Positions 9,387 to 58,747 of a stretch of DNA of 64,000 bases are shown here, one piece after another. The stretch is from Parcubacteria group bacterium (lineage in GTDB: Bacteria > Patescibacteriota > Patescibacteriia > UBA2169). Every line of letters starts with the position of its first letter. The stretch's first letter is position 1. The position numbers and the translations under genes are program-made. Under the pieces are notes generated by a model, which did not search any database, had not been told where the DNA came from, and worked only from the letters and a program-made list of their open reading frames with translations. The stretch is from the NCBI GenBank assembly GCA_016181765.1, contig JACOYR010000004.1, positions 115,937-179,936 on the forward strand, read 5' to 3'.

Positions 9387-9461
9387 GCCGCTATCGTCTA
9401 ATGGTCAGGACGCCAGGTTCTCATCCTGGCAATCGGGGTTCGATTCCCCGTAGCGGTACCA
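9387..9461 (+). tRNA. tRNA-Glu (anticodon CTC), CCA encoded
   Basis: Cloverleaf: acceptor GCCGCTA/TAGCGGT, anticodon loop TTCTCAT, T-loop GGGGTTCGATTCCCC. Confidence 0.85.
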
Positions 9462-17489: not shown

Positions 17490-17666
17490 CCGTGGTATAT
17501 CTGCAACGGCGGCGCTTGACTTTGTCAAGGTCCACGTTGGTAAGGAGGCGGTAACGCGCCTGCTGCGCCATGGGCCCCGTCCCCTTGCGGGGCTTAGCTA
17601 CGGACGAAGAACAACTGGCTTGTCAGTCCCGCGCCAGCTTCGGTTTGTAGCGGAGTAGATGACTCC

Positions 17667-17903
17667 TTATCTCCCCCAAATCTCACCCGCAAGCCGAACG
17701 GGTATTGCAAGAACAGACAACGCCAAAAACACAAGAAATCCCAGAAGCAGTGCAGTTGCTGCTGCCTCTCCCGCTCTACCTAAGGGGCCATGCCGAAGGC
17801 CGATCTTAGAAGTATCATTCATGAATGAGCGGAAGATGAATAGAGAGATGATGAGCGATATCACTATCAACCATGGGTTCATAGCTGACTCTCCTTGACC
17901 CAT
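17667..17903 (-). CDS. Small membrane protein (78 aa, two TM helices)
   Basis: Strong SD (AAGGAGA) 7 nt upstream of ATG; hydrophobic. Confidence 0.45.
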   Translation of the reverse strand: MGQGESAMNPWLIVISLIISLFIFRSFMNDTSKIGLRHGPLGRAGEAAATALLLGFLVFLALSVLAIPVRLAGEIWGR

Positions 17904-17970
17904 GTGCTCGGTCCGGTGAGGGTGAAAAAACGTAGCCTAACTTGTTGACAAAATACAATTTTAACCTATC

Positions 17971-18111
17971 TAGGACTTACGCGTTTGCCGTCATTCTGGA
18001 GCGAGGGTACTCCCGAGCGATAGAATCTATGCGTTTTTCACGGAGATTCTATCGGCTTTGAGTACAAAGCCTCCAGAATGACGACTATTTTTGTCAAACG
18101 CGTAAGTCCTA
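17971..18111. mobile_element. MITE-like 141-bp element with 17-bp terminal inverted repeats (TAGGACTTACGCGTTTG ... CAAACGCGTAAGTCCTA) and nested internal palindromes
   Basis: Directly visible TIRs plus a second inner inverted repeat (CCGTCATTCTGGAG / CTCCAGAATGACG) and a central palindrome (cgatagaatct / agattctatcg); non-coding. Confidence 0.5.
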
Positions 18112-18114
18112 TAA

Positions 18115-18375
18115 TTGTCATTACCATATACTGCTTTTACTACTAACTGTATGAAAATCAAGTACGACAAAACAACTGACACGCTTTACGTTGAATTTTT
18201 GGATACCACGGTCACCACCAAGCGGCTATCGGACGACATTGCCGTTGATTATGATGCCGCCGGAAAACTGGCCGGCATTGAGGTGCTGGGCGCGAAACAT
18301 CTCGTTTCAGAGGAATGGCCCAACCGGCATGTGGAATACCAGGAAGACGCGCTTGCGAAAGTGCAGCGGCTCTAG
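18115..18375 (+). CDS. DUF2283-family small protein
   Basis: MKIKYDKTTDTLYVEF... pattern typical of DUF2283. Confidence 0.55.
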   Translation: MSLPYTAFTTNCMKIKYDKTTDTLYVEFLDTTVTTKRLSDDIAVDYDAAGKLAGIEVLGAKHLVSEEWPNRHVEYQEDALAKVQRL

Positions 18376-18408
18376 CGGCTGGCGTGTGCTTTGCGAACGG
18401 ACGCGGCG

Positions 18409-18819
18409 TTAACCGCGCTTTTTTGGGATGATGTCCGGCTCACGCCCGTACTCGGGTATGATGATGGCTGGGGTTTTTGACGTTTTGCGGCGGCGTTTGA
18501 ACAACACAGCTATTTTATCAATCCCCTGTTCTTTTGAAACGCCGACAACAGGAATCTGCAATGCGTATGCCAAGGCATTGGCCGTTGCAATGCCGATGCG
18601 CAGGGACACGAACGAACCCAGGCCGCGGACGCAGGCGATGCCGCGTATATCTGACAGTGACGCTTTTGCCTGCGAAAGCATGCGCTGAATTGACGCTAAT
18701 AATTTTTCCGAATGCTGGCGGTTTGATGCGACGGTTTTTGTGCGGACGACTCCCCCGTCATTCACCAGTGCGACGGCAAATGAGTCGCGCTCGGTTGTAT
18801 TGATATAAAGATACATCAC
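18409..18819 (-). CDS. tsaB: tRNA threonylcarbamoyladenosine biosynthesis protein TsaB (YeaZ-like)
   Basis: N-terminal Kae1/YeaZ fold pattern (LYINTTERDSFAVAL...GSFVSLRIGIATANALAYAL). Confidence 0.8.
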   Translation of the reverse strand: MMYLYINTTERDSFAVALVNDGGVVRTKTVASNRQHSEKLLASIQRMLSQAKASLSDIRGIACVRGLGSFVSLRIGIATANALAYALQIPVVGVSKEQGIDKIAVLFKRRRKTSKTPAIIIPEYGREPDIIPKKRG

Positions 18820-24202: not shown

Positions 24203-24263
24203 TTCACAAACAAGTATCTGATATAATGCAAACGTACTAGCGCAACTACAGATACCAGTTCAG

Positions 24264-24296
24264 AAAAACAGCCGATGCTATCGGCTGTTTTTCTTT
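24264..24296. terminator. Bidirectional rho-independent terminator (aaaaacagccgatgctatcggctgttttt)
   Basis: Perfect stem flanked by A-run and T-run between convergent nudix and rluB. Confidence 0.7.
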
Positions 24297-25652: not shown

Positions 25653-27835
25653 GGCCCCAAAAAAACAATATGAAAAGCCGCCAATCCACCATTGTTTCCA
25701 CGGAGGTTTTAAGGCAGTCCGGAGCCCCGGGCACGCTTGAGGTGTTTGATCTCTCCCACGAGCGCGCCCGGGACAAAAAACTCGTGGTGCTTGTGGAAAT
25801 AGAGATCTCAGACCGCGACAACGAAATCATCGTTGAGGATATCGTCCGGGAATTGGAGTACCAATTTTTTAACGCGCCCACCCAGGAAACGGAGTACGCG
25901 TTTGAAAACGCGCTCGCCAAGGCGAACATCAAAATCAAAGATACGCTGCTCGGGAAACCGAAAAACTGGCTGAACCGCATCCACATCGCGGTGCTCGGGC
26001 TCGCGGAGAGCGAGGTGCACCTCGCAGCAGTAGGCATGGTGCACGCATTTTTGGTGCACAACGAAAAAATCGTGGACGTGCTCAAATCTCCGAACGATGC
26101 ATCCGCGCCCAACCCCATTAAGCTCTTCACCAACATCATAAGCGGCAAACTCACAAACGAAACCGCACTGGTGCTTACCAATGAATCCGTGCTTGACTAC
26201 CTCTCGGTGGAGCGTATCCGGAAGTGCGCCCGGGAGTTTGAGGCCCCGGAGGCGTGCGCCGCGCTCACCGAACTCCTGGCGCGCGCGCCGAGCCACAAGC
26301 AGTTCGCCCTGGCGGTCGTCTCCCCCGCGCGCGCGAGCGTGGAGCCGCGCGAAACGGCGCGCCCAAGCGTACCCAAAGCGCGGTACGCGGAAGAGGCAAC
26401 GCTGGCCGCCGAATACCAGCCCGCGCTGCCCGAAAGCGCGCCCTACCCCGAGGCGATCACGCGTTTTGAAGAAGGCGGACAAACAGCCCAAGCCGTTCTT
26501 GCGCGAATGGGGCAATATTCCCGGGCAGCCTTGACGTTTATGCTCGCGACACTCGCAAAGCTCCTGGAAGCGTTCCAGAGAGCGCTCAAACGCGCCATCC
26601 CGGCCATGGTGGCTTTTGAAAAAACCGTCGCAGCAAGCCTGAAAAACGGCAATACCCGATCCTATATGCGGCAGCGGATCAAAAATACGGCGGCCGCGTG
26701 GACCCGCAACCTTGTGTACGGGCAATCTAAAAAACGGAAGCTCGCCGGGCTCGCCGCGGTGGCGCTGGTACTCGTGTTCGCGGGGAGCATCGCAGTGCGC
26801 GCGCGCCGGCAGAACCAAGAAAGCCGGATTGCGGAATTTCAGGGGCGCATCGCGAGGGTTGAACAAAAGGTGAGCGAGGCGGAAGCGTCCCTCATCTACG
26901 GAAACAAAATCAAATCCCAAACACTGCTTGCCGAAGTGCAGGCCCTGATTGCCGAGCTTGAGCGCGAATTTCCGGACGAGGAAGCGCGGTACCAGGCGCT
27001 CGCGGGCGCCATCGCAACACTTCAGAATAAGAGTGAGAAAAAGCAGCCTATAAGCGACATTGCGACTGTTGCAACCATCATTCCCGCGCCCATTTCCGCG
27101 AACGAATCCGGGCTTGCCGCGCTCGGAGAAACCATATTCTTCTACGACGGGGTGCAGGAAAAAATCGCGAGACTGGATGCCGAAAACGGGCTCCTGCTTT
27201 CGCTCGCCCTTACACCCTCGGGCATGGCCCCGTTCAATACCGCGCTTCCCCTTGAGGGAAGCGCTATCGCGGCCCTGGCTCCGCAAGCCGCGCTCATTGT
27301 GGACGCGGATGGCGAAACCGTAGCGCGCCAGGAATTCCCCTATGCCCCGGAGAGCGCCAAGCCGTTCGCCGCGTACGGCACCAGTTTGTACACGTGGAGC
27401 GCTGAAGAAAACCAGATTATCAGGTTCAGGCGGGCCGGAGCAGGCTTTACCGCGCCCCAAAAGTGGCTCACCGGAGAGTACGAGTTCGCCACCATGCAAG
27501 ACATTGCGGTTGACGGATTCGTTTACCTGCTGGACTCCCAGGGCACCATACACGCGTTCCTGCGCGGGAGCCTGAACAAGACCATCCCCTGGGGCGCGAT
27601 TGAACTGCCCGGAGACTACGTGCGGCTCTACACCACGGAACAAGGAACCCGGCTGTATGTCCTGGATCCCGCGTACAGCCGCGTGGTGATCACGAGCAAA
27701 GAGGGTGAACTTCTGACCCAGCTCACCAACCCCATTCTGAATGATGTGACGGACCTTGCGATTGGCGCGGACGAAAAGAGCCTGTACGCGCTCGCCGGAG
27801 ACAAAATCTACCGCATCAACATTCCGGACTACTAA
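25631..27835 (+). CDS. Large hypothetical membrane protein (734 aa: cytoplasmic N-domain, one TM, coiled coil, C-terminal beta-rich domain); start may be at 25670
   Basis: Coding-like composition, TM helix LAGLAAVALVLVFAGSIAV, followed by strong terminator; antisense 694-aa ORF judged spurious. Confidence 0.5.
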   Translation: MIPPRQPRPQKNNMKSRQSTIVSTEVLRQSGAPGTLEVFDLSHERARDKKLVVLVEIEISDRDNEIIVEDIVRELEYQFFNAPTQETEYAFENALAKANIKIKDTLLGKPKNWLNRIHIAVLGLAESEVHLAAVGMVHAFLVHNEKIVDVLKSPNDASAPNPIKLFTNIISGKLTNETALVLTNESVLDYLSVERIRKCAREFEAPEACAALTELLARAPSHKQFALAVVSPARASVEPRETARPSVPKARYAEEATLAAEYQPALPESAPYPEAITRFEEGGQTAQAVLARMGQYSRAALTFMLATLAKLLEAFQRALKRAIPAMVAFEKTVAASLKNGNTRSYMRQRIKNTAAAWTRNLVYGQSKKRKLAGLAAVALVLVFAGSIAVRARRQNQESRIAEFQGRIARVEQKVSEAEASLIYGNKIKSQTLLAEVQALIAELEREFPDEEARYQALAGAIATLQNKSEKKQPISDIATVATIIPAPISANESGLAALGETIFFYDGVQEKIARLDAENGLLLSLALTPSGMAPFNTALPLEGSAIAALAPQAALIVDADGETVARQEFPYAPESAKPFAAYGTSLYTWSAEENQIIRFRRAGAGFTAPQKWLTGEYEFATMQDIAVDGFVYLLDSQGTIHAFLRGSLNKTIPWGAIELPGDYVRLYTTEQGTRLYVLDPAYSRVVITSKEGELLTQLTNPILNDVTDLAIGADEKSLYALAGDKIYRINIPDY

Positions 27836-28890: not shown

Positions 28891-29072
28891 ATGGCGTGGA
28901 TGAGACAAACTAAAAAATCTGCGGAAATTCCGCAGACGGGGCATAACAGCTGATCAACCGCAATGGGCTCTACCTGCTGCTTGTTCCTCGGCAGGTCATT
29001 GAGCTCCGGAGAGCGCCTGCTGTCTGCGGAAACATAGGTTTAAGGGCATACTACTACAACCCGGGAATGGTG
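28891..29072 (-). promoter_or_regulatory. Possible rplJ leader / L10 autoregulatory structured 5' UTR
   Basis: ~180-nt untranslated leader with hairpins (atctgcggaaattccgcagac) before rplJ; identity not verifiable by eye. Confidence 0.25.
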
Positions 29073-58669: not shown

Positions 58670-58747
58670 TGGCAGGGAGGGAAGGATTTGAACCTTCATC
58701 CTCTGGCTTTGGAGGCCAGCGCTCTAGCCTTTTTGAGCTACCTCCCT
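58670..58747 (-). tRNA. tRNA-Trp (anticodon CCA), CCA encoded
   Basis: Reverse strand cloverleaf: AGGGAGG acceptor, anticodon loop CTCCAAA, T-loop GAAGGTTCAAATCCTTC. Confidence 0.85.

Follow-up and report, generated by a model that had tools for sequence, protein, structure and literature searches.

The 141-bp element and its neighbours

Within the window, as we call the whole 64,000-nt stretch of Parcubacteria DNA analysed here, a gene for a small hydrophobic protein and a gene coding for a DUF2283 protein are separated by a 141-bp element with terminal inverted repeats, beside which the remnant of a further gene is preserved. The features of this locus, in window coordinates, are as follows:

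17667-17903, minus strand: gene for a small hydrophobic protein of 78 aa (71 aa from the second ATG), the divergent left-hand neighbour
17966-17970, no strand assigned: left flank CTATC, the would-be duplication site, unlike the right flank
17971-18111, no strand assigned: very probable non-autonomous IS701-family MITE of 141 bp, self-complementary over nearly its full length
17971-17987, plus strand: left terminal inverted repeat TAGGACTTACGCGTTTG, which also forms the ends of the full-length insertion sequences (IS) in L032, L065 and L094; a putative transposase-binding end
17989-18083, no strand assigned: interior long imperfect hairpin, holding a 13-bp pair and a central palindrome
18095-18111, minus strand: right terminal inverted repeat CAAACGCGTAAGTCCTA, 17/17 complementary to the left repeat
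18112-18146, plus strand: 3' remnant of an 89-aa, weakly DUF4258-like gene, starting at 18111/18112; its first bases, TAATT, are the right flank
18151-18375, plus strand: intact DUF2283 gene, 74 aa (Pfam PF10049, 57 bits)

In agreement with the initial annotation, the element occupies 17971-18111, its outer 17-bp repeats are perfect, its central palindrome (cgatagaatct at 18018-18028 and agattctatcg at 18044-18054) lies where it had been placed, and it has no coding capacity: no meaningful ORF is found inside the 141 bp, the only overlap being a mechanical 51-aa GTG-start call that exits the element. The inner 13-bp perfect pair described there is also present (CGTCATTCTGGAG at 17989-18001 and CTCCAGAATGACG at 18071-18083), but its left arm had been drawn one base too long, C17988 and A18084 being unpaired; this pair is part of two interior arms of 40 nt each (17989-18028 and 18044-18083) that are 75% complementary. 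The two ends of the element are the only sites of the terminal 17-mer in the 64-kb window even with three mismatches allowed, a stringency at which shuffled sequence has a mean of 0.11 matches and none of 100 shuffles contained two or more. The window holds one copy of the element, which has a GC content of 47% against 56% for the window.

Folding the element as RNA, as had been advised, gives one long hairpin on either strand (-75.6 kcal/mol, z -11.6 on the plus strand and -76.8 kcal/mol, z -12.0 on the minus strand), with an equal or better fold in 0/200 shuffles, and the interior stripped of the terminal repeats has a z of -7.1. Such very strong folds on both strands (z about -12), together with a position just ahead of the DUF2283 gene, whose native upstream region has been lost, would speak for a structured RNA, which the initial annotation had also contemplated; this would be non-coding, an sRNA or else the 5' leader of DUF2283, with the long hairpin as its functional unit. 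Against such an RNA, no Rfam family is matched in the element region at the gathering threshold, and the best match of a permissive search is to a miRNA model, mir-234, at 17.4 bits against a threshold of 58 (E 1.6). A conserved intrinsic terminator within the element, made up of the inner stem followed by ACTATTTTTG, was considered separately and rejected, as the nearest subfamily copies carry an A-run at that place.

A family of small elements with common ends

We scanned one genome per species (596 Gb) for the exact terminal 17-mer, a search in which a random 17-mer is expected to have about 70 matches, and recovered it in more than 120 genome stretches, mostly from Patescibacteria; these matches are not random. 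The hosts among the matches listed include, among other Patescibacteria, Saccharibacteria, Moranbacteria, Doudnabacteria, Falkowbacteria and Komeilibacteria, and further Kerfeldbacteria, Magasanikbacteria, Uhrbacteria, Berkelbacteria, Kaiserbacteria and others, along with a few Nitrospirota, cyanobacterial and other bins. The complete genome of a Methanoregula (CP121470) has at least five loci with the exact 17-mer, several of them with transposase matches, and a scan of viral contigs for the 17-mer returned 0 matches. For most of the 17-mers among the matches listed an inverted partner lies nearby, giving 86 paired elements, of which 81 measure 63-228 bp, four 1,067-1,074 bp and one 1,227 bp; this last pairing, in L011, probably joins the ends of two adjacent copies. 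The search for further copies and for an IS with matching ends that the initial annotation recommended was productive on both counts, with small copies found in many genomes and the IS described below.

Among 174 ends, there is almost no variation at positions 1-17 (TAGGACTTACGCG[T/c]TTG, or TAGGASTTACGCRKTTG as a degenerate pattern for the family end) and conservation drops sharply at position 18, with the terminal T1 conserved in 165/174 and A2 in 173/174 ends, figures that overstate the conservation of the ends, just as the counts given above are lower bounds, because the scan selected exact 17-mers and covers the matches listed. In each pair one end was chosen by the exact-match search and the partner end was not so chosen.

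Just outside TAGG...CCTA, an exact 5-bp direct duplication brackets 37 of the 86 copies among the matches listed, as against 1.0 in shuffled pairings; a further 16 show it with one mismatch, and at least two mismatches are present at this position in 33. Duplications of 2-4 or 6-9 bp are not enriched among these 86 copies, and the duplicated 5-mers are mostly AT-rich. The initial annotation had noted that the element starts and finishes with TA and had taken this as compatible with a TA target, which would make it an IS630/Tc1-mariner-type MITE that inserts at and duplicates TA. With the terminal TA lying within the repeat and the duplications outside it, this idea is refuted: T1 and A2 are conserved repeat positions, shared also by the ends of ISMesi2 (see below), the duplications are 5 bp in length, and the autonomous element with these ends encodes an IS701-family rather than an IS630 transposase, so that an IS630/Tc1 derivation is left with a negligible probability.

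The interiors of the family, considered without their terminal repeats, are mostly structured (median z -3.8, 61% below -3, n=80) and vary from one subfamily to the next, while usually being self-complementary. Since this holds for most of them, the nested-repeat appearance of the window copy is a family trait, and its whole-length hairpin, being habitual in the family, is no evidence for an RNA gene. The recurrence of the same ends, with unrelated interiors and 5-bp duplications, at hundreds of unrelated sites, as well as around a transposase gene, likewise argues against the RNA interpretation.

The window copy falls in a subfamily of 141-148 bp and shares about 75% identity along its entire length with two copies of 141-142 bp (L077 3568-3709 and L095 3094-3234). 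The subfamily copies at this level of identity come from a groundwater Patescibacteria population (L077/L124, L095/L121, L122 and L123/L125) and occupy different sites, three of them with the intact duplications AATTC, ACTAA and AATTT. The subfamily effectively comprises two sequence types, namely the window copy and a cluster that is about 95% identical, and no near-identical copy of the window element was found in the collections scanned. A megablast comparison of the 64-kb window with the first 120 loci recovered no match, which places the source genome outside them.

One groundwater Patescibacteria genome, represented by L121 (Ga0265296_1003154) and by at least seven JBAZQK01 loci (L011, L069, L077, L083, L095, L111 and L119), carries many copies of several MITE subfamilies, of 166-, 141- and 131-bp types, with three to four copies in 14 kb on L121, a high density for such a genome. 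We also observed GTCAT, often as GTCAT[T/C]C, in 24 of 162 subterminal segments of 30 nt (shuffles: mean 3.8, maximum 10), most commonly starting at position 20 from the end, and 0 occurrences of its reverse complement in the same segments; the window element has the motif at 17990-17994 and, on the complementary strand, at 18078-18082. This motif could be a second transposase contact, or could reflect shared descent among some of the subfamilies.

The IS701-family parent and its known relatives

The four longer elements (L022, L032, L065 and L094; 1,067-1,074 bp) have the same 17-bp ends as the window copy, with a sole mismatch in the left end of L022, and each contains a single ORF of about 320 aa. 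The encoded transposase scores 368.8 bits against the NCBIfam model NF049921, 'IS701 family transposase' (cut-off 250), and 97.5 bits against the classic model NF033540 (cut-off 150), and it also matches the Pfam families DDE_Tnp_1 and DDE_5. Judged by its sequence, the parent of the window MITE is a member of the IS701 family, within the small ISMesi2/ISAba11-like group. The presence of the same ends on transposase-encoding IS accords with the earlier description of the element as a non-autonomous IS derivative (MITE), although the parents then suggested, IS630/Tc1 or IS200/IS605, give way to one with an IS701-family DDE transposase. An IS200/IS605-derived element (PATE) was rejected as a candidate on account of the perfect terminal repeats, the 5-bp family duplications and the DDE rather than TnpA(Y1)/TnpB parent.

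A tblastn comparison of the parent transposase with the 64-kb window returned noise only and no transposase gene. Similarity between the window interior and the interiors of the full-length IS stands at shuffle level, which indicates that the window element is not a simple internal-deletion derivative of the IS copies sampled. Based on the ends, the duplications and the matching IS, we hold with high confidence that window 17971-18111 is an IS701-family MITE.

We further observed that the transposase ORF ends in ...YLANA*, with its TAA inside the terminal repeat (GCA AAC GCG TAA GTCCTA; L022 2113-2152, and also in L032, L065 and L094). The repeat would thus be under both coding and binding constraint, and the conservation of the ends across transposases that are about 44% identical may in part stem from this stop codon.

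Two described elements come closest to the Patescibacteria IS: ISMesi2, annotated as IS701-like, on the Allomeiothermus silvanus plasmid NC_014213 (L139 211-1302), and an unnamed IS on the Methanosarcina barkeri MS plasmid NZ_CP009527 (L140 196-1334). Both are of about 1.09-1.14 kb and have a single DDE transposase ORF, as do the Patescibacteria IS, yet their transposases share only about 44% identity with that of L032. The ends of ISMesi2 (TAGGAGTTACGCAGTTG...CAACTGCGTAAGTCCTA) differ from the window ends at 2-3/17 positions and those of the M. barkeri IS (TAGGACTTACGCAGTT...AACTGCGTAACTCCTA) are near-identical to them; in both, repeat positions 13-14 differ from the family (AG vs GT). Both are autonomous, whereas the window element has no ORF and has only the ends in common with them.

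The ISAba11 group makes 5-bp duplications, the length also made by the family of the window element. ISAba11 itself, an IS701-family member of Acinetobacter baumannii, measures 1,101 bp (positions 998797-999897; PMC7760358), and resembles the parent IS in being a small element of this family; its host is a proteobacterium. The parent transposase is matched by 121 Acinetobacter plasmid records at less than 60% identity, and no ISAba11-derived MITE was found in the literature searched.

In kind, the window element is a standard prokaryotic MITE. MITEAba12 duplicates 9 bp. Its architecture (PMC6382973) is the same as that of the family of the window element, being about 100-150 bp long, non-coding, multicopy, located in or near genes, and equipped with IS-matching repeats and target duplications; the cyanobacterial Nezha (cited in PMC10969869) shares this MITE architecture. 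Both of these differ from the window element in their parent IS families, their ends and the lengths of their duplications. The literature searched in full text contained no MITE from Patescibacteria or the candidate phyla radiation, no IS701-derived MITE and no mention of ISMesi2, and neither IS701 nor Patescibacteria figures in a 2024 review on the MITEs of prokaryotes; the family is apparently undescribed.

Gene loss beside the element

The gene order around the window element, namely rsmH, mraZ, the small divergent gene, the 89-aa gene (a remnant in the window), DUF2283, and genes for a TsaB-like protein, DapB and a C39-like peptidase, recurs in L129 and L130, and L129 carries a syntenic 71-aa counterpart of the left-hand small gene. 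Exact-protein look-ups of the left small protein, in its 78-aa and 71-aa forms, and of MraZ found none on record. The DUF2283 orthologues are 83-96% identical, with 96% for the protein of L129 and L130, and in the relatives their gene is the second of a two-gene module, from the upstream region of which it is cut off in the window. The first gene of the module codes for an 89-aa protein that matches Pfam DUF4258 over its full length (E 0.0034, 18.1 bits, below the cut-off of 25) and obtained no name in an NCBIfam search. DUF4258 and DUF2283 form a recurrent two-gene pairing that is often predicted to be a toxin-antitoxin system, and the 89-aa gene and DUF2283 are probably a toxin-antitoxin pair.

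Nucleotide homology to L129 and L130 ends at 17968 and resumes at 18111-18118, these points being the two ends of the element. In place of the 141-bp element L129 has about 416 bp (2552-2967), consisting of a second copy of the terminator and tsaB 3' end, the upstream region of the module and the first ~78 codons of the 89-aa gene. The 17-mer is absent, even at four mismatches, from all ten syntenic or related loci (L129-L138), and the orthologous site thus shows a presence/absence polymorphism, with the element in the window and lacking in these relatives.

The locus had been taken for a plain intergenic spacer, a view that requires revision, as the right end of the element adjoins the 3' remnant of the truncated 89-aa gene: ATA ATT GTC ATT ACC ATA TAC TGC TTT TAC TAC TAA encodes IIVITIYCFYY*, 11 codons in frame, which align with the C-terminal ...ENQEIIVITVYCFYY* that L130, L131 and L133 encode in an intact gene and are followed by the same short spacer to 18151. 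This in-frame tail shows that the 89-aa gene was formerly present in the window lineage and has since largely disappeared; as both breakpoints fall at the element ends, the loss is tied to the element. The flanks of the window copy, CTATC and TAATT, mismatch at 3/5 positions and constitute no target duplication; the combination of perfect ends with a missing duplication would be explained by the loss of adjacent DNA. We consider it likely that the 89-aa gene owes its truncation to a deletion associated with the element.

The same comparison bears on the RNA interpretation, for which the initial annotation had pointed to conservation in synteny as part of a UTR as the telling observation: relatives whose neighbouring genes are 80-96% identical lack the element at the orthologous site. 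Moreover, a promoter scan of 17500-18600 found no sigma-70-like site and only the terminator of the DUF2283 gene at 18402-18419. Taken with the Rfam results and the properties of the family, this makes a functional RNA at the locus very unlikely.

We propose that the window element is a MITE without a transposase of its own, the ends of which would be recognised by an IS701-family DDE transposase of the ~1.1-kb group acting in trans, and that insertions of the family, at mostly AT-rich sites, would generate the 5-bp target duplication. The element would have landed in or next to the two-gene module, either at ...CTATC, on the left, or at TAATT inside the 89-aa gene, on the right. Subsequently, about 416 bp beside one of its ends would have been lost, taking with it the upstream region, the duplicated terminator/tsaB fragment and the first ~78 codons of the gene. 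The loss could have come about by a transposase-mediated adjacent deletion through intramolecular transposition or by recombination between two copies, and after either route a single element would remain, its ends perfect and its flanks unrelated. For the IS701 family, replicative movement has been reported in Deinococcus (PMC8944449). As a whole, this account of an IS701-type MITE moved in trans, with insertion and an adjacent loss of ~416 bp, is in our view very probable; within it, we infer the order of events and the deletion mechanism at the window locus, as we do the mobility of the window copy and any effect on the expression of the DUF2283 gene.

The module has features that bear on the direction of change. 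In L129, and in the same manner in L130, it is bracketed by direct repeats of ~110 bp that are 99% identical (L129 2564-2673 and 3252-3349), each made up of a terminator hairpin and the 3' end of the TsaB-like gene, the upstream copy being lost in the window; in L131 and L132 the module occurs in a different gene context. The bracketing repeats suggest that the module was itself inserted or duplicated. This apparent mobility is consistent with the opposite polarity, in which the arrangement of the window would be ancestral, the MITE having inserted cleanly with subsequent decay of its duplication, and the relatives would have later gained the 89-aa gene and its upstream DNA; that 33 of the 86 family copies among the matches listed have at least two mismatches at the duplication position is compatible with such decay. 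However, an in-frame tail of 11 codons with its stop and the correct spacing to DUF2283 is what truncation is expected to leave, both homology breakpoints coincide with the element ends, and ends that are perfect at 17/17 positions argue against decay having erased 3/5 flank bases. We therefore regard an ancestral window arrangement as improbable and retain the insertion of the MITE followed by adjacent loss.

Three Logan contigs (L126, L127 and L128, from runs SRR12113424, SRR12113430 and SRR12113433) encode the identical DUF2283 protein and all start at 18061, inside the element. A break shared by three independent assemblies, as repeats produce in de Bruijn assembly, suggests that it is repeat-induced, and is a hint of further copies only; the contigs place the source population in the samples of those three runs.

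With the DUF2283 gene deprived of its native upstream region and the left-hand neighbour divergent, its transcription, if any, would have to start in the element or at its edge. At the junction, the terminal TA of the element and the flanking TAAT make up a perfect TATAAT (18110-18115), which precedes the DUF2283 start codon by 36 nt. A promoter function of the junction is doubtful, since just 13 bp separate the TATAAT from the closest hexamer resembling a -35 box (TTGTCA, 18091-18096), a spacing that is too short.

A broader reading combines an undescribed, unusually widespread MITE superfamily with a DUF2283 gene orphaned from a toxin-antitoxin-like pair and maybe driven from the junction TATAAT (18110-18115); we put this conjunction forward tentatively and think it rather unlikely in full. 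It draws on 17-bp ends that hardly vary among more than 15 lineages of Patescibacteria and on the reach of such ends into archaea (Methanoregula and Methanosarcina), Deinococcota, Nitrospirota and cyanobacteria. If true, one pair of transposase and end would still be spreading across phyla and even domains, in genomes that are regarded as streamlined and as having little mobile DNA.

Some Patescibacteria genomes of ~1 Mb contain several copies in 10 kb, a density with consequences for assembly breaks, annotation and ideas of streamlining. With the 17-bp end conserved in bacteria and archaea, members of the whole clade can be searched for simply by this sequence. The locus itself would be a clean natural case of a MITE-associated deletion that truncated the first gene of a toxin-antitoxin-like module and left the second intact.

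Elsewhere in the window, we noted at 24262-24294 a hairpin of 15 perfect base pairs closed by a 3-nt loop (AGAAAAACAGCCGAT / ATCGGCTGTTTTTCT), which looks like a bidirectional terminator, and at 26969-27260 a 23-nt inverted pair, 78% complementary and with 246 nt between its arms; neither seems connected with the element. The Rfam search also identified a ribosomal protein L10 leader at 28901-29047 on the minus strand (48.4 bits against a gathering threshold of 44) and tRNAs at 9387-9458 on the plus and 58673-58747 on the minus strand, all of them routine.
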